Shown here: positions 42,003 through 55,022 of the stretch, one piece after another
How positions within the stretch are numbered: the first letter of the stretch is position 1
Layout of the letters: every line of letters starts with the position of its first letter
Assembly (NCBI GenBank): GCA_937901475.1
Contig: CALGTL010000020.1
Coordinates: 1 to 56,886, forward strand
Reading direction: 5' to 3'
Length of the DNA: 56,886 nt
Source: an uncultured Dehalococcoidia bacterium
Lineage (GTDB): Bacteria > Chloroflexota > Dehalococcoidia > Lucifugimonadales > Australimonadaceae
Made by a program: the position numbers and the translations under genes
The notes under the pieces: generated by a model
What the model saw: only the letters and a program-made list of their open reading frames with translations
Told to the model about the DNA's origin: nothing
Database searches by the model: none

Positions 42003-43154
42003 ATGGTGCTACCGCGTGTCCAGATTAAGGAACTTCGGAGGACCTACGGGTTTGAAGAGGTCGCCATCGTTCCCGGTGATGTGACGACGAACCCCGAGCT
42101 TTCTGTTCCCACCTTTGAAGTGGGCCCCTACCAGTTCACGATTCCCATAATGGCGTCCGCAATGGACGCCATTGTTAGCCCTGCCTTTGCCGGCCTGATG
42201 GCTAAGGCGGGAGGTGTTGGCGTGATGAACCTTGAAGGAGTGTACGGTCGATACGAGGATCCTCAGTCGGCTATCGAAGAAGTGCGCGCCGCCTCTCGCG
42301 AGACCGTGACTGAAGTTCTCCAGAAGGTTTACAGCGCTCCCCTGAAGGAAAACCTGGTACAAGAACGAGTCCGGGACTTGAAGACTGAGGGAGGCGTGGT
42401 TGCGGTTTCTGTCACCCCCCAGAACGCAAAGCGTCTTGCTCCTCTGGCGGTAGAGGCTGGCGCGCAAATCATCGTGGTGCAATCCACGGTGACAACTGCA
42501 CGCCACATCTCCAATAGCTATGCGGGCCTGAGTTTCTCTGACTTGGTCGACGAAGTGAAAGTGCCTGTCTTGATTGGCAACACGGTGACCGCGAGTGCGA
42601 CGTTGGAGATCATGGAGCAGGGCATCGATGGCATCTTCGTTGGAGTTGGCCCTGGCGCTGCCTGCACGACACGTGATGTGACAGGCATGGGGGTTCCACA
42701 GGTGTCAGCGACGATGGAGTGTGCGGCGGCACGGGATGAGTTCTACGCTCGCACGGGTAAGTACGTCCAAATCATCACTGATGGTGGTATTCGGACGGGC
42801 GGTGATGTGAATAAGGCTCTTGCTGCTGGTGCGGATGCGGTCATGATTGGTACGCCGTTTGCGCAGACTTTCGAGGCACCAGGCAAAGGCTTCAACTGGG
42901 GCATGGCCAGCCCTCACCCGGCGTTGCCTCGAGGCACGCGACTAAACGTAGGAGCATCGGCTAGTTTGGAGCAAGTGCTGTTCGGTCCTAGCCGTCGAAC
43001 CGATGGCACACACAACCTAGTTGGAGCCATCAAGGTGAGCATGAGCATGGTTGGGGCGCAGACTATTAAGGAATTCCACGAGAAAGCGGAACTTGTTGCA
43101 GCCCCGACCATCGCAACGGAAGGCAAAATCTTCCAGCGCGCGGGCCAAATCTAA
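42003..43154 (+). CDS. GuaB3-family IMP dehydrogenase-related protein (no CBS domains)
   Basis: RRTYGFEEVAIVP, SAMD, GVGPGAACTT catalytic Cys, DGGIRTGGD, WGMA.P. Confidence 0.9.
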   Translation: MVLPRVQIKELRRTYGFEEVAIVPGDVTTNPELSVPTFEVGPYQFTIPIMASAMDAIVSPAFAGLMAKAGGVGVMNLEGVYGRYEDPQSAIEEVRAASRETVTEVLQKVYSAPLKENLVQERVRDLKTEGGVVAVSVTPQNAKRLAPLAVEAGAQIIVVQSTVTTARHISNSYAGLSFSDLVDEVKVPVLIGNTVTASATLEIMEQGIDGIFVGVGPGAACTTRDVTGMGVPQVSATMECAAARDEFYARTGKYVQIITDGGIRTGGDVNKALAAGADAVMIGTPFAQTFEAPGKGFNWGMASPHPALPRGTRLNVGASASLEQVLFGPSRRTDGTHNLVGAIKVSMSMVGAQTIKEFHEKAELVAAPTIATEGKIFQRAGQI

Positions 43155-43265
43155 GAGAATCTGCTCCGCATTTACGGACCTTTGTGGTCCTTGAGTACGG
43201 CAGGAGCGGGATACATTCCTCTTCGCGGTGCTCGCGCATGGCCAGTGAGACTGATGAGTAGCAGG

Positions 43266-43306
43266 GAGAAGGGACGGATCACAAGGATGGTCCGTCCCTT
43301 CTTTTT
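43266..43306 (+). terminator. Intrinsic terminator downstream of guaB3
   Basis: gagaagggacggatca-caagga-tggtccgtcccttctt followed by a T-run. Confidence 0.8.
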
Positions 43307-43347
43307 CAATGAGAGCACAGGGGTGGATACACCGACGTGTTATGCGA

Positions 43348-43376
43348 TTGACCGAGCCTCGGGCCGCGCCTATTCT
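43348..43376 (+). promoter_or_regulatory. Sigma70-type promoter of the pan operon
   Basis: TTGACC-17 nt-TATTCT. Confidence 0.65.
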
Positions 43377-43429
43377 GTACATGCAACCTACTCCCTGCAG
43401 GGAAAGGTGAGCAGCTCGGACAATAGAAT

Positions 43430-43495
43430 GAGCCCCGCAGCCAATCGGATCCAAGGCGACCGATATGGAACAGGGCAATGCCTCTCGTCTCTGGT
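43430..43495 (+). ncRNA. pan RNA motif-like cis-regulatory leader
   Basis: cgcagccaatcggatccaaggcg and gatatggaacagggcaatgcctctcgtctc form two tandem bulged hairpins in the 5' UTR of a panBC operon. This resembles the pan motif as I recall it; boundaries are approximate. Confidence 0.65.
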
Positions 43496-43508
43496 TATAC
43501 GACTAGTA

Positions 43509-43538
43509 ATGCCCGCCTTGCGCGGGCATCTTTTGTTT
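43509..43538 (+). terminator. Attenuator terminator after the pan-like leader
   Basis: atgcccgc-cttgc-gcgggcat followed by cttttgttt. Confidence 0.7.
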
Positions 43539-43570
43539 AGGCCAGGTAGAGAACGAATAGGAGATCAATC

Positions 43571-44551
43571 ATCAACGGAACGCTTACGGATGTCATAGGT
43601 CTGGAGGTTGGCCACCACACGGATCTGGTCGCAGGGACCGGTTGCACAGTGGTGCTTGCCAGAGCTGGCGCTGTGGGTGGAGTGGACGTTCGTGGCGCTG
43701 CACCCGGAACCCGTGAGACAGATTTGTTGCGCGCCGAGAATATGGTGCCTTTTGTCCATGCAGTGACTTTGGCTGGCGGCTCGGCCTATGGGTTGGCGGC
43801 TGCTACTGGAGTGATGCAGTACCTCGAAAGCGAAGGCATCGGGCACAAGGTTCGTGACTGGCTAGTGCCGATAGTTCCAGGGGCAATTATCTTTGACTTG
43901 GGATTAGGCGATAGCACTGTCCGGCCGACGGATGCCGATGGATACGCTGCGGCTGCGGCCGCGAGGAGCGCTCCTGTTCAGCAGGGGTCCGTTGGTGCTG
44001 GAACGGGAGCAACCGTGGGCAAAGCGCTGGGCATGAGGCAGTCAATGAAGGGCGGAGTCGGCTCCGCAAGCATGGACCTGGGTGATGGCGTGGTACTAGC
44101 GGCGCTGGTGGTGGTAAATGCCGTGGGGAGCGTTTATGAGCCGGACACGGGCGAGCTCCTTGCAGGCCCTCTCGCGGCTGGGAAACCGCTCGACAGCGTG
44201 AGTATCTACGCGGACCCTGAGTACGGTCGAAAACCGCAGAGGCCTTCACCTGAACCGTTGAGCAATACGACGATAGCTGTGATTGGGACATCTTTGAAGC
44301 TTTCTAAAGCGCAGGCCAATAGGCTGGCGACTGTTGCCCATGATGGGTTGGCGTTGGCAGTGCGGCCGACGCACACGCTGCACGATGGAGATACTGTGTT
44401 CACGCTGGCTACGGGGGTTGTCGATGCTATCGATGAATACCCACGCCTCTGCGGGCTCGCGCCGACCTTAATGGCAAGGGCGATTGTGAATGCGATTCGC
44501 AACGCGACCGGATTACATGGGCACCCGTCGTATGGGGATGTGATGGAGTGA
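43571..44551 (+). CDS. P1/S58-family (DmpA/ThnT-like) self-processing hydrolase; probable ATC start
   Basis: GAAPGTRETDLL, LAGGSAYGL, VPIVP.A.IFDL, GSVGAGTGA, KGGVG, SNTT cleavage motif, HDG, HT..DGD. The family N-terminus TLTDV.GL.VGH...TGCTV lies in frame upstream of the ORF-track GTG at 43649. Confidence 0.85.
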   Translation: MNGTLTDVIGLEVGHHTDLVAGTGCTVVLARAGAVGGVDVRGAAPGTRETDLLRAENMVPFVHAVTLAGGSAYGLAAATGVMQYLESEGIGHKVRDWLVPIVPGAIIFDLGLGDSTVRPTDADGYAAAAAARSAPVQQGSVGAGTGATVGKALGMRQSMKGGVGSASMDLGDGVVLAALVVVNAVGSVYEPDTGELLAGPLAAGKPLDSVSIYADPEYGRKPQRPSPEPLSNTTIAVIGTSLKLSKAQANRLATVAHDGLALAVRPTHTLHDGDTVFTLATGVVDAIDEYPRLCGLAPTLMARAIVNAIRNATGLHGHPSYGDVME

Positions 44552-45435
44552 CTAATCGATCGACAATCGCAATTATTGGCGCGGGACGAGCGGCCCACGT
44601 ACTAGGTACGGCGTTAGCACGTGCTGGCTATGAGGTCGTGGCAGTGGCTAGTCGAAAGCTGGCATCTGCGGAGTCGGTGGCAACGGCTGTCCGAGATGCG
44701 GGGTATGCCAGGTGCTTGGTGGTGTCCGTGCAAGGTGCTGCTGATGCGGCAGCGCTGGTTTTGATAACCACAAACGATGGGGCCATTGGCGGCGTGGCAG
44801 GCGAGGTTAGCTGGAAGCATGGGCAGGCGGTGGTTCACGTTAGCGGTGCACTAGGTGCTGACGTGCTCGCACCCGCCGCCGCGAAAGGTGCACGCGTCGC
44901 ATCGTGGCATCCGTTCCAAACTCTGGCCGGTTCGGCGAGGCTAGACGGAGCGACTTTTGGTATTGAGGCTGGCGAAGACCTCTATGAGGAGCTTGCAGAA
45001 ATGGCGCGGGCTGTCGGTGGCGAGCCGCTGGCAGTGCCGGCCGATGCACGAGCGCTCTATCATGCTGCGTCCGTGCTGGCATGTGGCTATTTGACAACAC
45101 TTTTGCGCGAGGCGCGCCGGGTCTGGCAAGCTGCGGGATTGCCTGAAGAGGAAGGCCGTAGGGCGATTGGCGCGGTTGCTGCAGCGACGCTTGAGAATTT
45201 CCGTACGCTTGGCGAGAACGCAACGGTAACGGGTCCGGTCTCACGCGGCGATGCGGGCACAGTGCGATTGCATCTTGAGGAACTGGAGCGCGTTGCTCCC
45301 GAGCTGATCAACCTGTACACCGCGATAAGCAGGAGGTCAGCAGTGCTCGCTTCTGAGGCGGGTCGACCTACGGGGCCATTAAATATGTGGGACGCGCTTT
45401 ATGGCGAGTTTCAAGGACAAGTAGAGAAGGAATAA
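44548..45435 (+). CDS. panG: Rossmann-like + DUF2520 protein (PanG-type ketopantoate reductase)
   Basis: IIGAGR, H.SGA, HPFQT, YHAA, TGPVSRGD..TV..HL; located directly before panB. Confidence 0.8.
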   Translation: MTNRSTIAIIGAGRAAHVLGTALARAGYEVVAVASRKLASAESVATAVRDAGYARCLVVSVQGAADAAALVLITTNDGAIGGVAGEVSWKHGQAVVHVSGALGADVLAPAAAKGARVASWHPFQTLAGSARLDGATFGIEAGEDLYEELAEMARAVGGEPLAVPADARALYHAASVLACGYLTTLLREARRVWQAAGLPEEEGRRAIGAVAAATLENFRTLGENATVTGPVSRGDAGTVRLHLEELERVAPELINLYTAISRRSAVLASEAGRPTGPLNMWDALYGEFQGQVEKE

Positions 45436-45437
45436 GA

Positions 45438-46283
45438 ATGCCTGTACGCATTACGAAATTTCAAGAGATGAAGCAAATGGGGGAGCGTATTCCCTGTATC
45501 ACTGCATATGACTACCCCACCGCGAAACTTGCTGATGCAGCCGGGATTCCATTGATCTTGGTTGGGGACAGTTTGGGGAATGTGGTGCTTGGGTTCGGCT
45601 CGACCGTTCACGTGACAATGGATGACATGGTTCGCCATACGCAGGCGGTAGTGCGTGGCACGCGCGAGGCACTAATCGTTGCAGATATGCCCTTCATGAG
45701 CTACCAGGCAAGCCCCGAGGATGCGGTTCGCAATGCAGGCATCTTGATTCAAGAGGCAGGGGCCCACGCTGTGAAATTAGAAGGGGGGGAATTTATAACA
45801 GAGGCTGTTGGTCGCATTACTAACGCAGGCATCCCTGTGTTAGGACACTTGGGCCTGACTCCGCAGTCGGTGAATCAACTTGGTGGTTACCGAGTCCAAG
45901 GTCGAACGTTGCCGCAGGCCCAGAAATTGCTGGATGATGCCGTGGAATTGGAGGCAGCGGGTGTGTTTGGGATTGTGCTCGAATCCGTGCCTGGGCCACT
46001 GGCCGAGGTAGTGACGAAGCGCTTACGGGTACCGACGATAGGCATAGGTGCAGGCGCGGGCTGCGATGGTCAGATTCAGGTCCTGCATGATTTGCTGGGC
46101 TTGAGTGATAGGGTACCGAAGCATGCGAAACAGTACGCGAACCTCAATCAAGTCATTGAGGAAGCGATAGCGGCATATATGGGTGATGTCCGTGATGGCG
46201 ATTTCCCAACCGATGAACACACGGCACAGATCGACGATGCGGTTCTACGCGAGTTCATGGGCGATGTGGCGGCGGACAGGTGA
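45438..46283 (+). CDS. panB: 3-methyl-2-oxobutanoate hydroxymethyltransferase
   Basis: TAYDY, LVGDSLG, ADMPF, VKLEGG, GHLGLTPQS, TIGIGAG..CDGQ. Confidence 0.97.
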   Translation: MPVRITKFQEMKQMGERIPCITAYDYPTAKLADAAGIPLILVGDSLGNVVLGFGSTVHVTMDDMVRHTQAVVRGTREALIVADMPFMSYQASPEDAVRNAGILIQEAGAHAVKLEGGEFITEAVGRITNAGIPVLGHLGLTPQSVNQLGGYRVQGRTLPQAQKLLDDAVELEAAGVFGIVLESVPGPLAEVVTKRLRVPTIGIGAGAGCDGQIQVLHDLLGLSDRVPKHAKQYANLNQVIEEAIAAYMGDVRDGDFPTDEHTAQIDDAVLREFMGDVAADR

Positions 46284-47116
46284 TGCTCCGAGTCTGGACG
46301 GTGACAGAACTTCGAGCGGCGCTGCAGAGCATGCCGCGGCCGGTGGGCTTAGTACCAACGATGGGAGCTGTGCACGAGGGGCACTTGAGCCTTGTCAAAC
46401 AGGCGAGGTCTGATAATGCGACAGTAGTCGCGACAATTTTCGTGAACCCTACACAATTCGACGAGACTCAGGACCTAGAGCACTACCCTCGTCCGATAGA
46501 GCAAGACCTGGCGCTGCTTGAGAGTGAAGGAGTGGATCTGGTGTTTACTCCTTCTACGGATGAAATGTACCACCCGGGCTTCATGACGACGATTCACATA
46601 GAAGGCCCTGCACGAGAATTCGAAGGCGCTGCTCGCCCGGGACACTTTGATGGGGTGGCGACTGTGGTGGCGAAGCTGTTGTTGCAGTCGTTGCCTGAAG
46701 TCGTGTATTTCGGCCGAAAGGATGCGCAGCAGGTTGCGGTAGTGCGCAGGTTAGTGTCCGACCTTGATATCCCCGTAGCACTTGCTGTCATGTCCACGAT
46801 TCGAGAGCACGATGGATTGGCGATGAGTAGTCGCAATGTGACTCTGAGTGAAGACCAGCGCCGGGCTGCGCCAGCATTGTTTCTCGCGCTATCGGCGATG
46901 CGCGACCGGTATCGGTCCGGGATGCAGAACGCAGTGCAACTGAAAGAAGGTTGCACTGCTTTGCTGACTCAGGAGTTGCTATTCGATTTGGTGGATTACG
47001 TAGCGCTGGTTGATGAAGAGACGTTTATTCCTTGGGGCGGTACCGGCTCTTGTTTGCTGGTTGCTGCAGTACGGATGGGTAGCGTGCGTCTGATTGATAA
47101 CGTCGTGCTTGATTAG
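46280..47116 (+). CDS. panC: Pantoate--beta-alanine ligase
   Basis: VPTMGAVHEGH, FVNPTQF, RPGHFDGV, FGRKD.QQ, GLAMSSRN, RLIDN. Confidence 0.97.
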   Translation: MMLRVWTVTELRAALQSMPRPVGLVPTMGAVHEGHLSLVKQARSDNATVVATIFVNPTQFDETQDLEHYPRPIEQDLALLESEGVDLVFTPSTDEMYHPGFMTTIHIEGPAREFEGAARPGHFDGVATVVAKLLLQSLPEVVYFGRKDAQQVAVVRRLVSDLDIPVALAVMSTIREHDGLAMSSRNVTLSEDQRRAAPALFLALSAMRDRYRSGMQNAVQLKEGCTALLTQELLFDLVDYVALVDEETFIPWGGTGSCLLVAAVRMGSVRLIDNVVLD

Positions 47117-47180
47117 CAAGGCACTCGCCCTCAGATGCTACACTTGAGAGGTCACATAAGCAGTGCTGGAGCGGTGATAC

Positions 47181-48134
47181 ATGGCATTTCTGAGCTACAA
47201 TAACCCACCGACGGACCTTAGAGATCCGACCTTGCTGTTTGCATTCGCTGGCTGGGCGGACGCTGCGGATTCGGCTACCCATGCTTTGCGCTATGTGGTG
47301 CGGCACCTGAATGGCGAGAAATTCGCAGAGGTTGACCCGGAGGAATTCTATAATTTCACTCGAGTACGCCCAAAAACCAAGTTCGACGATGATGGTGAGC
47401 GCTATATAGAGTGGCCTGCCAACGAATTTTATGCGATTCGTCGCGAGGACGCGGACACCGACTTGGTGGTGCTGGTAGGCGTTGAACCCAACATGAAATG
47501 GCGGACATTTTGCCAATCGATGTTGGAGGAAATGCAATCTCTTGGCGTTAGCAAGGTGATTCAGGTTGGTGCGCTCCTAGATGCAGTGCCACATACTCGA
47601 GAAGTCCGGATCACTGGTACGGCGACGAGCCCAGAGTTGCGCGGGATGCTGCGCGGTATCCACGTGCGACGATCGCGCTACACGGGCCCCACCGGAATTT
47701 CGGGGGTGATGACGGACACGTTGCGGCGCGAAGGAATACCGACGGTGAGTTTGTGGGGACATGCTCCACACTATTTGCAGGTGACACCGAACCCAAAGGT
47801 GAGCCTGGGACTGGTGCAAGGGCTAGAGCAGCTGATTGACATTAGCGTTCCTGTTGATGCGCTTAGGTCGCTTGGTCTGAACTTCGAGCGCCGTGTCGAA
47901 CAGGCGTTGGATGGTGAGTCCGACGTTTTGGCATACGTGGAGAAGCTCGAAGAGCAGTGGGATACACGTCGAAGAGCAGGCCGGAATCAGCCATCTACAG
48001 ATTTGTTCTCGTCCCTGCCTAGTGAGCCTGCTGGAAGTGGTGCCGAGACGGGCGAGATTCCTGACGCTGACCAAGCAGTGGCGAGCATCGAAGAATTTCT
48101 ACGTCAGGAGAGACAAGGCGACGCGGGGAGTTGA
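47181..48134 (+). CDS. PAC2 (proteasome assembly chaperone)-family protein
   Basis: AFAGWADA, DPEEFY.F...RP, GVEPN..W, GALL..VPHTR, Y.GPTGI, PHY, YV..LE. Confidence 0.85.
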   Translation: MAFLSYNNPPTDLRDPTLLFAFAGWADAADSATHALRYVVRHLNGEKFAEVDPEEFYNFTRVRPKTKFDDDGERYIEWPANEFYAIRREDADTDLVVLVGVEPNMKWRTFCQSMLEEMQSLGVSKVIQVGALLDAVPHTREVRITGTATSPELRGMLRGIHVRRSRYTGPTGISGVMTDTLRREGIPTVSLWGHAPHYLQVTPNPKVSLGLVQGLEQLIDISVPVDALRSLGLNFERRVEQALDGESDVLAYVEKLEEQWDTRRRAGRNQPSTDLFSSLPSEPAGSGAETGEIPDADQAVASIEEFLRQERQGDAGS

Positions 48135-52280: not shown

Positions 52281-55022
52281 GTGAGACTCTCCAGGTTCTC
52301 GATCATAGGAATAATGGTGGCACTGCTCTTAACAGCAGTTGCAGTCATGCCTGCACTTGGTGCAGTTACAGGCGCCATCACGGTAGATAAAACCTTCGTT
52401 GCGCCGTCAGGCACAGTGACGGTTTCGGTTACGGACGCTGATCTAAATGTGACGACAGCGGCCACTAACTACATCGACGGCGGTATATGGGATTCTTCAG
52501 GAAAGGTTGTTTTCCTGAACCTGAAGGACTCGTGGAACCAAACTGGCGCCGATTTCGGTTCCAGTACAACCGCCGCTGGTGACGAGGTCACAGCCCCAGT
52601 GCTGGTGGCTCGTAACCTTAACGGTGGTTACACCAACGTTCTCTCCGACTTCAGCGTCTCTGTTTTCGACGCTGACCTCGGTAAGATTCGTGTTGAGTTT
52701 GGTGGTGCTTCAGGGACACAGGTCACCCAGAGCATGACTTTCTCTTACAAGATTGCAGGGAAAGAGACGGCTACTGTGACCATCACTAGCCCCTCAGACG
52801 CAACTGGTATCACGGTATCCCTCGCAGAAACTGGTGCAAGCACTGGTAAATACTCGGGGACATTCGATGTCACCGGTGGTCCTGCGGTTGCAAGTAACCA
52901 AGCAGAAGGTAACATTCTTGCGGTTGCTGGCCAGGACGTCACAATCAAGTACACAGATGCCAGTCCTTCAGTGAACACCACTAAGACTGTGCGTGTAGAG
53001 TCCAATAAGCCTGTCGGCTCGTTGGTCTCACCTGCTAACAAGTCGACAACGACTTCGTTGACACCCAAGTTGAAGGTTGAATTCACAGATTTGGATGCCA
53101 AGGTCAACAATGGCACCTTTGCATTCGTGATCGCAGAAGCAACCAAGACGGGTAACGTTGCAGCAGCCATTACGGTGGGAACTGCGACTACAAAGGCAAT
53201 TACCAACGGTTACAGCGCGGAGGTTACGATCGACGCCTCAGCCCACACCGGCGAGACCATTTCCATTGATTGGTATGCGACCGTCGACGACAAGGCTGGA
53301 AACACCGGTCAGACAGATGCTGACGCAACGGTAACTGGAAACCAGAACTACAAGCTAATCATTGATAAGCAGGCACCGAACTTCACTGGTGCAACATTCA
53401 GTGCTGGAGCTTGGTGGAACGCTGAGACCTCCAAGGCGGAGACCGACGTAACTAAGTCGATACCGACCAGTATCGGTATCAAGATGCCGTTGGCTTTGGA
53501 CCTGAACACCTCTACTGACGACATCAAAGAGTCATTGGTGCCAGGGACGGTCACAGTCGCAGACTTCGAAATTGATTCACTGAAGAAGGCAAATGGCGCT
53601 GGCACTGTCAACGACATCGCCCCGACAGCAGTGAATGTCTACGCTGCTGCGCCTGAGTGGATTTTCTTGACCGTGCCAGCAATGGCCCCGGACGCGGCTC
53701 CTAAGGTTTCACTTAAGAGCACCTCTGGTGGACTTAGCGATGCAGCGGGTAACGCTACTTCCGCAGCGGTTACTAACAAAGTAATCACGGACAGGCAGGC
53801 GCCCACGGTTACATACGCCCTGAACAGGACGTTGAACAAGAAAGACTTCACCCTAACCATCACGACCAACGAGGCCGGTGGTGTTCCGGTTGTGACGATT
53901 GAGTCTGCTAGCTCGGTTAGCGCCTCTCCAATCTCCCAGTCGGTAACGTTGGCAGGTACCAACATCTACGAATCGAAGATTGCACCCACCTTTGGAATGC
54001 ACTCGGTCAAGATCACGGTAACTGACACGGCAAGCAACGAGACTATTCTTGGTGGCGTAGGCCCGAAGACAGACTGGGCTACGGCATCAGGGGCTATCGG
54101 GCTCTACATGGACGACAACGTTCCTGCACCTACAGTGACAGTGAATGGTGTAACGGCATCAGGAGCGAGCGTTGAGGCTTCCGAGCCCTTCTTCATCACT
54201 GCAGCATTCACTGGAGAAAAGAAGGAATACGGTCTTACTACTGGTGGCACGGTTACGGCCGATGCTGCAGCTGTAGTGACTGACCTCGACACACAGAACA
54301 CGGTTACGCTTGCGACTGCCACGCTAGATGGCGTGGACATCCTCACTTCACAGGACACGCAAGACAACTCAACGTTCACCTTCGCGATGGCCAATGTCGC
54401 TAAGGGTGCTCACAAGTTAGTGCTAGCCGCTAAAGACGAGGCTGGTAACGCAGTCACGACTGGTACGATCAACTTCACAGTCACCGCTCGTAAGGCCTAC
54501 AGTGTGGCCATGAGCGCTGGTTGGAACTTGATTTCCCTCCCCGGAACTCCGGTGGATGGAGCAATTGGATCAGTACTAAGCGCAACCCACCCAGCAACGG
54601 ATGTGCTTAGCTACGACGACGGAGTTTGGTCAGTCGCTTCCCGAGTAGCGGGCGGCGTATGGGAAGGCACATTGACGACCATTGACGGTAACCACGGTTA
54701 CTGGGTCAACACTAGTTCTTCCGCACCGGTGACCAGCCTCCTGTCGCTCACAAGCGTTGGTTCAGCAGCAACACTGCCGACCATCGCGATTGAGCCCGGT
54801 TGGAACTTGGTATCGGTGATTGACCTTGCGCAAACGAAGCAAGGCGATGCTGCTGCTACTAAGACTGGAGCTGTCTACTTCACGAGCGTGTCGTGGTCCG
54901 TGGCTTACAGCTACGATGCTACGACCAGGGCGTGGACGAGAGTGACCTCAACATCCGGTAACGTCAGTAACGGTACTGGAGTCTGGGTCTGGGCCACAAA
55001 GGCTGGCACGCTGATCCCGTAA
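52281..55022 (+). CDS. Large secreted Thr/Ala/Val/Gly-rich beta-sandwich protein; S-layer/major surface protein candidate
   Basis: Sec signal peptide (MRLSRFSIIGIMVALLLTAVAVMPALG), no Cys seen, repeated D.AGN motifs and two C-terminal GWNL(I/V)S...G(Y/V)WV repeats. It has its own promoter and terminator. Confidence 0.75.
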   Translation: MRLSRFSIIGIMVALLLTAVAVMPALGAVTGAITVDKTFVAPSGTVTVSVTDADLNVTTAATNYIDGGIWDSSGKVVFLNLKDSWNQTGADFGSSTTAAGDEVTAPVLVARNLNGGYTNVLSDFSVSVFDADLGKIRVEFGGASGTQVTQSMTFSYKIAGKETATVTITSPSDATGITVSLAETGASTGKYSGTFDVTGGPAVASNQAEGNILAVAGQDVTIKYTDASPSVNTTKTVRVESNKPVGSLVSPANKSTTTSLTPKLKVEFTDLDAKVNNGTFAFVIAEATKTGNVAAAITVGTATTKAITNGYSAEVTIDASAHTGETISIDWYATVDDKAGNTGQTDADATVTGNQNYKLIIDKQAPNFTGATFSAGAWWNAETSKAETDVTKSIPTSIGIKMPLALDLNTSTDDIKESLVPGTVTVADFEIDSLKKANGAGTVNDIAPTAVNVYAAAPEWIFLTVPAMAPDAAPKVSLKSTSGGLSDAAGNATSAAVTNKVITDRQAPTVTYALNRTLNKKDFTLTITTNEAGGVPVVTIESASSVSASPISQSVTLAGTNIYESKIAPTFGMHSVKITVTDTASNETILGGVGPKTDWATASGAIGLYMDDNVPAPTVTVNGVTASGASVEASEPFFITAAFTGEKKEYGLTTGGTVTADAAAVVTDLDTQNTVTLATATLDGVDILTSQDTQDNSTFTFAMANVAKGAHKLVLAAKDEAGNAVTTGTINFTVTARKAYSVAMSAGWNLISLPGTPVDGAIGSVLSATHPATDVLSYDDGVWSVASRVAGGVWEGTLTTIDGNHGYWVNTSSSAPVTSLLSLTSVGSAATLPTIAIEPGWNLVSVIDLAQTKQGDAAATKTGAVYFTSVSWSVAYSYDATTRAWTRVTSTSGNVSNGTGVWVWATKAGTLIP

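Follow-up and report, generated by a model that had tools for sequence, protein, structure and literature searches.

The window analyzed here is a 56,886-nucleotide (nt) stretch of contig CALGTL010000020.1 of an uncultured Dehalococcoidia bacterium, and it carries a pantothenate (vitamin B5) operon in which panG, panB, and panC are preceded by a gene for a self-processing amidase of the S58 (P1) peptidase family. The S58 gene was found to be conserved as the first cistron of the pan operon, downstream of a leader RNA that is specific to pan loci, which bears out the view of the initial annotation that the enzyme is a dedicated member of the pathway. We consider it very likely that the enzyme belongs to vitamin B5/coenzyme A (CoA) metabolism. 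More specifically, we propose that it serves in salvage as an amidase that releases pantothenate and is regulated together with de novo synthesis, a reading suggested by homology and gene context to which we give about an even chance. The locus occupies window positions 43348..47116 on the + strand and contains the following features.

43348..43376, + strand: sigma-70-like promoter, TTGACC (43348-43353), 17 nt, and TATTCT (43371-43376); 9/12 matches
43381..43484, + strand: structured leader RNA with two hairpins, P1 and P2 (RNAalifold and covariance model)
43509..43538, + strand: intrinsic-terminator-like hairpin ATGCCCGC/GCGGGCAT with T-run; the hairpin proper is 43509-43529, followed by CTTTTGTTT (terminator scan)
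43560..43563, + strand: GGAG ribosome-binding site, 7 nt 5' of the ATC start (sequence)
43571..44551, + strand: S58/P1 self-processing N-terminal nucleophile (Ntn) amidase, 326 amino acids (aa), ATC start (PF03576)
44267..44269, + strand: codon of Thr233, the predicted N-terminal nucleophile after self-cleavage (alignment with ThnT)
44548..45435, + strand: PanG-like ketopantoate reductase candidate with DUF2520 and a Rossmann-like domain (profile matches)
45438..46283, + strand: panB, ketopantoate hydroxymethyltransferase (PF02548, E = 3.7e-112; TIGR00222, 333 bits, cut-off 208)
46280..47116, + strand: panC, pantoate--beta-alanine ligase (PF02569, E = 2.8e-92; TIGR00018, 272 bits, cut-off 213)

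The four genes are arranged in the order S58-panG-panB-panC and are tightly coupled. The GTG start of the panG-like gene overlaps the S58 stop codon (GTGA at 44548), panB begins with ATG at 45438 after a 2-nt gap, and the GTG start of panC overlaps the panB stop codon (GTGA at 46280). The promoter, leader, terminator, four genes, GTGA overlaps, 2-nt gap, and SNTT motif were each found at the positions given in the initial annotation. The absence of panD from the window, also reported there, was extended to the whole 2.31-Mb, 97%-complete source genome, in which PanD (PF02261) had no match anywhere. The panG-like protein matched PF10728 (DUF2520; 104 bits, E = 5e-30) and PF10727 (51.6 bits). 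It thus has the domain combination of PanG, with DUF2520 at the C terminus and a Rossmann-like domain at the N terminus, and its role as a reductase is predicted; the name follows that of Francisella PanG.

The full S58 frame matched the family profile PF03576 with 158.7 bits, and the 300-aa form matched it with 139 bits (E = 2.3e-40, cut-off 23.9). Public gene calls contain only this shortened 300-aa product, which starts at GTG 43649. The frame has no ATG, GTG, or TTG upstream of 43649, and the conserved N terminus NGTLTDVIGLEVGH is encoded 5' of this position. Relatives start with ATG-AAC-GG at the homologous site, and ATC stands there (window position 43571) in all three genomes of the genus (the source genome and those of loci L002 and L003). 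The ATC codon may act as a weak start that tunes expression of the first cistron. The SNTT motif corresponds to residues 230-233 and aligned with NTT of ThnT and NCT of a ThnT variant chain. In an alignment of 16 sequences, T233 was invariant and N232 nearly invariant, and self-cleavage is predicted between these two residues. K151, K160, N183, D272, and D274 were also invariant in the 16 sequences; by residue numbering, they may correspond to the catalytic Lys, Asn, and Asp-x-Asp residues of NylC. Proteins with 63-71% identity have generic database names ("P1 family peptidase [SAR202 cluster bacterium]"). Seventeen matches were obtained in the PDB at E ≤ 0.001, and all were ThnT, NylC-type, or related hydrolases, with no DmpA or BapA chain among them. 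The E values were 2.3e-64 for Nyl50 (9cxr), which was the best solved match, 1.7e-48 for ThnT, and about 1e-25 for NylC.

By sequence comparison, ThnT of the thienamycin pathway of Streptomyces cattleya (PDB 3tm1, 3s3u, and 4ihe) is the closest natural enzyme of known role. The two proteins belong to the same S58/P1 fold family, with the match extending over residues 5-292, and share the Asn-Thr self-cleavage site and the Thr nucleophile. ThnT cuts the pantetheinyl group at the pantothenoyl-cysteamine amide, releasing cysteamine (PMC6097109). ThnT has 419 aa and is encoded in an antibiotic gene cluster, whereas the protein studied here has 326 aa, with no such cluster, and is encoded in a primary vitamin B5 operon. 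The other solved relatives are the nylon-oligomer hydrolases Nyl50 and NylC (PDB 9cxr, 5xyp, and others). NylC-type enzymes cut linear aliphatic amides with a Thr nucleophile in a tunnel-like site (PMC13015463), and in the available text of the Nyl50 study the native function of the homologue panel is given as undetermined (PMC11601465). They differ from the present case in that nylon is an unnatural substrate and the NylC gene is located with nylA and nylB, not with pan genes.

We examined the conservation of the S58-pan linkage in the order, using 41 genomes including the source genome, with 40 loci from 39 relatives mapped by tblastn. A full-length S58 homologue was present in 34 genomes, panC in 39, and panD in 5; one further genome had a 66-residue S58 remnant. 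In 31 of the 40 relatives and in the source genome (32/41), S58 and panC are neighbors on one strand, an adjacency far beyond chance. The linkage is conserved in the order. The contiguous arrangement S58-panG-panB-panC was found in 28 of the 31 linked relatives; the exceptions were G015 and G030, which are without panG, and G036, which has a 2.6-kb insert. Six pan operons were without S58 (G012, G027, G031, G038, G039, and G040), and in G029 the S58 region was lost at a contig end. The inserts of variant operons, DUF402 in G027 and a CoA-transferase-like gene in G036, gave no functional lead. Beyond the order, the 80 best loci in other species (44-56% identity) included 14 that were pan-linked in the same gene order, all from Chloroflexota by title, and one further locus had panB on the opposite strand.

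Two side observations concern S58 copies outside this arrangement. The remnant in G040 (L042 2436-2633; G040:C1:63436-63633) comprises 66 residues with 32% identity (E = 3.6e-4) just 5' of panG and is probably a decayed copy. In G026, a second, unlinked S58 copy (L033, G026:C17:5400-10400) is located beside an amidase-signature enzyme, an alpha/beta hydrolase, and a DUF3179 protein.

The leader RNA of the operon is about 130 nt long and stands 5' of the G+C-rich hairpin and T-run, and the upstream regions of relatives share conserved blocks. The hexamers of the putative promoter also recur in relatives as alignable TTGACC and TAT(T/C/G)CT. In hairpin P1, a bulged A is conserved and precedes GAGC, and P2 has the form GCCGCUGGGAUCC...GGACCGAGACGGC with internal bulges. 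RNAalifold gave 15 pairs in two hairpins, 9 of them with compensatory changes. A covariance model, R1, built from 16 sequences scored the leader of the source genome at 76.4 bits. In an alignment fitted to R1, which leans towards the structure of the model, 96% of cells were paired (17-42% in slid controls) and 11 of 14 pairs showed double changes. The single-sequence fold had a z score of -1.27, which is uninformative alone. A search of 67 sources with R1 returned 32 matches at E ≤ 5e-5, including its own 16 seeds. These matches were located just upstream of S58 and, in the S58-less genomes G012 and G039, upstream of panB. The source genome has one copy of the leader. Across the order, 23 of the 41 genomes have one copy each, in every case of known context at the pan locus, and no further regulon members were found among the 41 genomes. 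Weak R1 matches at window positions 54580-54671 (+ strand; E = 0.51) and at G000:C140:5253-5318 of the source genome (E = 0.16) are probably due to chance. These results identify the leader as a covarying, pan-specific RNA and a riboswitch candidate.

The known pan RNA motif (RF01749) occurs upstream of panB, panC, and panD operons and consists of a stem with two conserved bulged A residues, mostly in tandem (PMC2864571). The initial annotation had called the leader pan-like. Its position upstream of pan genes and its general build, with two hairpins and the bulged A in P1, do resemble the motif as judged from the verbal description, but its conserved blocks match no family in Rfam 15. RF01749 (gathering score 36.2 bits) was searched against segments of 121 nt and 601 nt spanning the leader and against the whole genome; at E ≤ 10 it matched none of them, whereas it did match a Bacillus subtilis control. 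Across the window, all Rfam families stayed below their gathering scores. At E ≤ 10, the segments 43100-43700 and 43370-43490 gave no relevant match, and no relevant Rfam 15 family was found at E ≤ 1 in 11 related loci. G+C-rich hairpins with T-runs are present at the equivalent place in relatives, and the terminator is likely the expression platform through which the leader would switch. By eye, several sequences have the word GCCCGC in common between the strand 5' of P2 and the 5' arm of the terminator. This shared word suggests mutually exclusive pairing with GGGC 3' of P2, which would give an OFF switch upon ligand binding.

The gene 5' of the operon is of the GuaB3 type (TIGR01304 above cut-off), and one further feature is located at its 3' end.

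43265..43304, + strand: terminator-like hairpin GGAGAAGGGACGGATC...GGTCCGTCCCTTCTTT with T-run at the 3' end of the guaB3-like gene (inner part in the terminator scan)

The synteny of the guaB3-like gene, the pan operon, and a PAC2-family gene (window positions 42003-48134) is kept in many relatives of the family. Seawater metatranscriptomes (three runs) provided two short contigs on the operon, 184 nt at 44641-44824 and 167 nt at 46111-46277 (depth 3.5-4.6), and one further contig on the PAC2 gene; the matches cover neither the transcript start, the leader, nor the termination.

Next, the gene neighborhoods of S58 in other phyla were examined. Among the 66 non-pan loci of the wider sample, the immediate neighbors of S58 included the S component of energy-coupling factor (ECF) transporters (8 loci), SSF symporters (4), AcpS (3), BirA (4), and M20 deacylases (4), and TAXI-type binding proteins adjoined S58 in five Burkholderiales loci. 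The four SSF symporter loci are Gemmatimonadota-like. The best specific NCBIfam match was panF for three of the four symporters, but the panF scores of the four proteins (79-116 bits) were far under the cut-off of 328, and panF identity was not reached. The eight ECF S components had no NCBIfam match. We then took a census of 121 genomes from one clostridial order, in which S58 was present in 54, CoaX in 118, and panC in 77 genomes. Both S58 and panC were found in 29 genomes, S58 alone in 25, panC alone in 48, and neither in 19; panC was thus missing in 25 of the 54 S58-bearing genomes versus 19 of the 67 S58-less genomes.

In the 55 clostridial S58 loci (including L131), two genes were scanned on each side, and a pantothenate or CoA gene was present within this distance in 22. 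Eleven loci had the arrangement (FtsH or OAD-beta)-(BirA)-S58-ECF S-CoaX, and in one other locus CoaX was located 4.3 kb downstream behind an ABC transporter. Three loci had DUF997, two of these with the full DUF997-SSF pair, which we take to be the YhdT-PanF arrangement. EcfA-EcfT-x-S58-PanB-M20 was found in three loci, a divergent panC in three, and ApbA/PanE in one. A further locus, with CoaE two genes from S58, was kept outside the 22. No panC match was obtained in 6 of the 11 genomes with S58-ECF S-CoaX, thereby indicating that the enzyme product must feed CoaX, not PanC, in these genomes. An OPT-family transporter adjoined S58 in 13 of the 55 loci. In two of them, L172 and L176 (G132 and G097), the order was class B acid phosphatase, OPT transporter, and S58, which could provide a route from extracellular phosphorylated CoA fragments to intracellular pantothenate. 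An ArgE/DapE-family M20 deacylase recurred with S58 in 11 loci (L062, L081, L120, L129, L150, L153, L157, L158, L161, L173, and L181), often with an ECF or OPT transporter and sometimes with PanB or DUF997. This association suggests a two-hydrolase pathway for an imported amide.

The initial annotation had offered two roles for the enzyme. The first was beta-alanine supply, in which cleavage of a beta-alanyl amide or peptide by the amidase would provide the beta-alanine that PanC needs and stand in for PanD. DmpA and BapA share PF03576 and self-processing with the present protein and release N-terminal beta-amino acids, the S58 gene is translationally coupled to the pan genes, and peptide-type transporters (OPT and SBP_bac_5) and M20 peptidases often adjoin S58 in clostridia. 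In the order, 36 of the 41 genomes, including the source genome, had no panD match, yet 39 of 41 had panC. The check for other beta-alanine routes in the source genome found no group II pyridoxal phosphate-dependent decarboxylase (PF00282), a single CN_hydrolase match within a 592-aa frame, and one carbamoylase-family candidate. This candidate is a hydantoinase/carbamoylase-family amidase (G000:C28:3979-5208, L197) on a 5.5-kb contig with uninformative neighbors. It matched TIGR01879 with 437 bits, its best subfamily match was "allantoate amidohydrolase," and it could provide a beta-ureidopropionase-type route to beta-alanine.

The distribution of panD and panC contradicts the replacement of PanD by S58. 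Instead of the expected anticorrelation, panD was found in 5 of 32 genomes with linked S58 versus none of the seven panC-bearing genomes without it, and all five panD-bearing genomes of the order carry the S58-pan operon. An intact pan operon in the absence of both S58 and panD was found in six genomes. Among the 14 pan-linked loci of other species, panD was located between panG and panB in five (L067, L068, L082, L118, and L133; tblastn with PanD of relatives). In 50 S58-bearing genomes from other loci, 22 were without panC and 17 had panD, and the clostridial S58 carriers without panC, including the six with S58-ECF S-CoaX, point the same way. The genomes are mutually related and those reached via loci come without completeness figures, so all these counts are descriptive and not statistical tests. 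In addition, the 17 PDB matches suggest that the protein belongs nearer to ThnT and NylC, whose branch is endo-acting, than to any DmpA or BapA chain; in DmpA and BapA, the nucleophile is Ser, and these exo-acting enzymes remove beta- or D-amino acids from the N terminus. The presence of S58 is neither anticorrelated with panD nor dependent on panC, which is not the pattern of a PanD substitute, and we regard beta-alanine supply as quite unlikely. The single-contig genome G035 also speaks against this role, as S58-panG is kept there and no panB, panC, or panD was found.

In the complete genome G035 (L038, G035:C1:541000-548000), S58 is directly followed by the PanG-like gene without a leader. 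This pairing hints at joint work of the two proteins outside de novo synthesis. The flanking genes (SurE, Fic, an ACT protein, and a PF00282 decarboxylase 2 kb away) provided no lead.

The second role in the initial annotation, recycling of pantetheine to pantothenate, fits the gene contexts in other phyla. The source genome has CoaX, and no type I pantothenate kinase (PanK) was found in it. In B. subtilis, pantetheine use is supported by CoaA only, and the CoaX family is highly selective for pantothenate (PMC11487621). The available part of a 2025 review likewise states that coaX bacteria do not phosphorylate pantetheine, and the only pantetheinases it mentions are those of the host (PMC12570885). 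In yeast, Opt1 imports pantetheine as a glutathione mixed disulfide (PMC12406275). Taken together with the gene contexts in other phyla, these points would make the release of pantothenate from pantetheine-type amides the most economical function of the enzyme. No literature link of S58, ThnT-like, or NylC-like enzymes to primary pantothenate metabolism was found in a search that mostly did not cover subscription journals.

According to the proposed mechanism, a cytoplasmic precursor would cleave itself between Asn232 and Thr233, and the new N-terminal Thr would serve as the nucleophile. It would hydrolyze a pantothenoyl amide, with pantetheine, or pantetheine derived from imported disulfides, as the lead substrate and pantothenate and cysteamine as the products. 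If the CoaX of the source organism does not use pantetheine, the hydrolase would be the re-entry step for CoA breakdown products. S58 would be co-transcribed with panG, panB, and panC from one promoter behind the leader and terminator. Salvage and de novo synthesis would thus respond as a unit, and an ample supply of an end product would probably shut both off. The substrate, the direction of regulation, and the leader ligand in this scheme are what we infer. The same reaction, from pantetheine to pantothenate and cysteamine, is carried out by the vanin pantetheinases of animals. Vanins are eukaryotic and extracellular and have an unrelated fold, that of the nitrilase superfamily. They are the host enzymes mentioned in the review (PMC12570885).

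The same chemistry and the same contexts would also suit a guard or repair enzyme. By hydrolyzing pantothenoyl amides that are damaged or are analogues, such an enzyme would recover pantothenate and keep false CoA analogues from being made. Oxidized pantetheine, natural pantothenamide-type antimetabolites, and mis-made PanC products would be its substrates. Three clostridial loci have AcpS, NAD(P)HX dehydratase, and 5-formyl-tetrahydrofolate cyclo-ligase beside S58, and the latter two are classical repair enzymes. S58 also occurred with type I PanK in all five S58-bearing Bacilli examined, and type I PanK accepts pantothenate analogues (PMC11487621), so a guard would be useful exactly in such Bacilli. 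However, CoaX-only organisms, including the source organism, are not expected to activate pantothenamides, and the adjacency of importers (ECF S, SSF, and OPT) favors nutrition over defense. We consider a guard or repair role unlikely.

Several observations weigh against pantothenate salvage. ThnT acts on the pantetheinyl group only when this is attached to the carbapenem core, according to the available text (PMC6097109). Nyl50, the closest solved homologue, is known only as a nylon hydrolase, which indicates that the family is promiscuous. No ECF S component was found in the source genome, and no importer is located beside its S58 gene. In the clostridial order, 33 of the 55 loci had no pantothenate or CoA gene within two genes. 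All five Bacilli mentioned above also have CoaA, and the argument that CoaX cannot use pantetheine therefore fails there; CoaX alone as a universal rule for S58 carriers was thus ruled out. In the ECF-S58-M20-PepF clusters of Bacilli, the enzyme may act on another amide. The missing panC in genomes reached via loci may reflect gaps in metagenome-assembled genomes, for which there are no completeness figures. The retention of PanG together with S58 in G035 also counts against this reading. Finally, a quick maximum-likelihood tree was built from 110 S58 sequences. Of the 46 pan-linked sequences, 41 fell into one group, which also included the G035 copy, and the five panD-containing operons formed two other groups; the backbone of the tree is weakly supported, and orthology between the Chloroflexota and clostridial proteins, hence the transfer of function, is tentative.

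Some of these points would also agree with a catabolic or unrelated peptidase that hitch-hikes in the operon. Such an enzyme could be a pantothenase, with pantothenate itself as the substrate, or an amidase of broad specificity, for example for oligopeptides or polyamide-like compounds. The nylon hydrolase as the closest solved homologue, the clostridial loci without a vitamin B5 gene nearby, many of which are beside peptide transporters and peptidases, and the generic database names are in line with this explanation. Nevertheless, the place of S58 as the first cistron behind a pan-specific leader is kept across the order and beyond, and vitamin B5/CoA neighbors recur in Chloroflexota, Clostridia, and Gemmatimonadota-like genomes. 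A pantothenase beside a pantothenate importer and kinase in panC-less genomes would be self-defeating. A catabolic or unrelated role thus appears very unlikely.

In the available texts, bacterial pantetheine salvage is described only via type I pantothenate kinase (PMC11487621 and PMC12570885), and most bacteria have only CoaX (PMC11487621). If the proposed function is correct, a cytoplasmic pantothenate-releasing amidase would fill the pantetheine-salvage gap of CoaX bacteria. It would also explain why these enzymes cut nylon-like linear amides and give a physiological role to a large group of "P1 family peptidases," present in 54 of 121 clostridial genomes and 34 of 41 genomes of the order. 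Predictions of which marine and gut bacteria are vitamin B5 auxotrophs or depend on cross-feeding would change as well. A broader possibility, which we put forward tentatively and with more doubt than confidence, is that the ThnT/NylC-like clade of S58 represents the pantetheinase hitherto missing from bacterial primary metabolism, a widespread salvage enzyme that makes pantothenate from pantetheine-type CoA breakdown products in bacteria with CoaX as the only kinase. Pan operons of SAR202-type Chloroflexota and transporter-CoaX modules of Clostridia would both have recruited it, and the Chloroflexota operon would be under a previously undescribed vitamin-B5-related riboswitch. Such a role would also provide the native function of the "nylonase" homologues.

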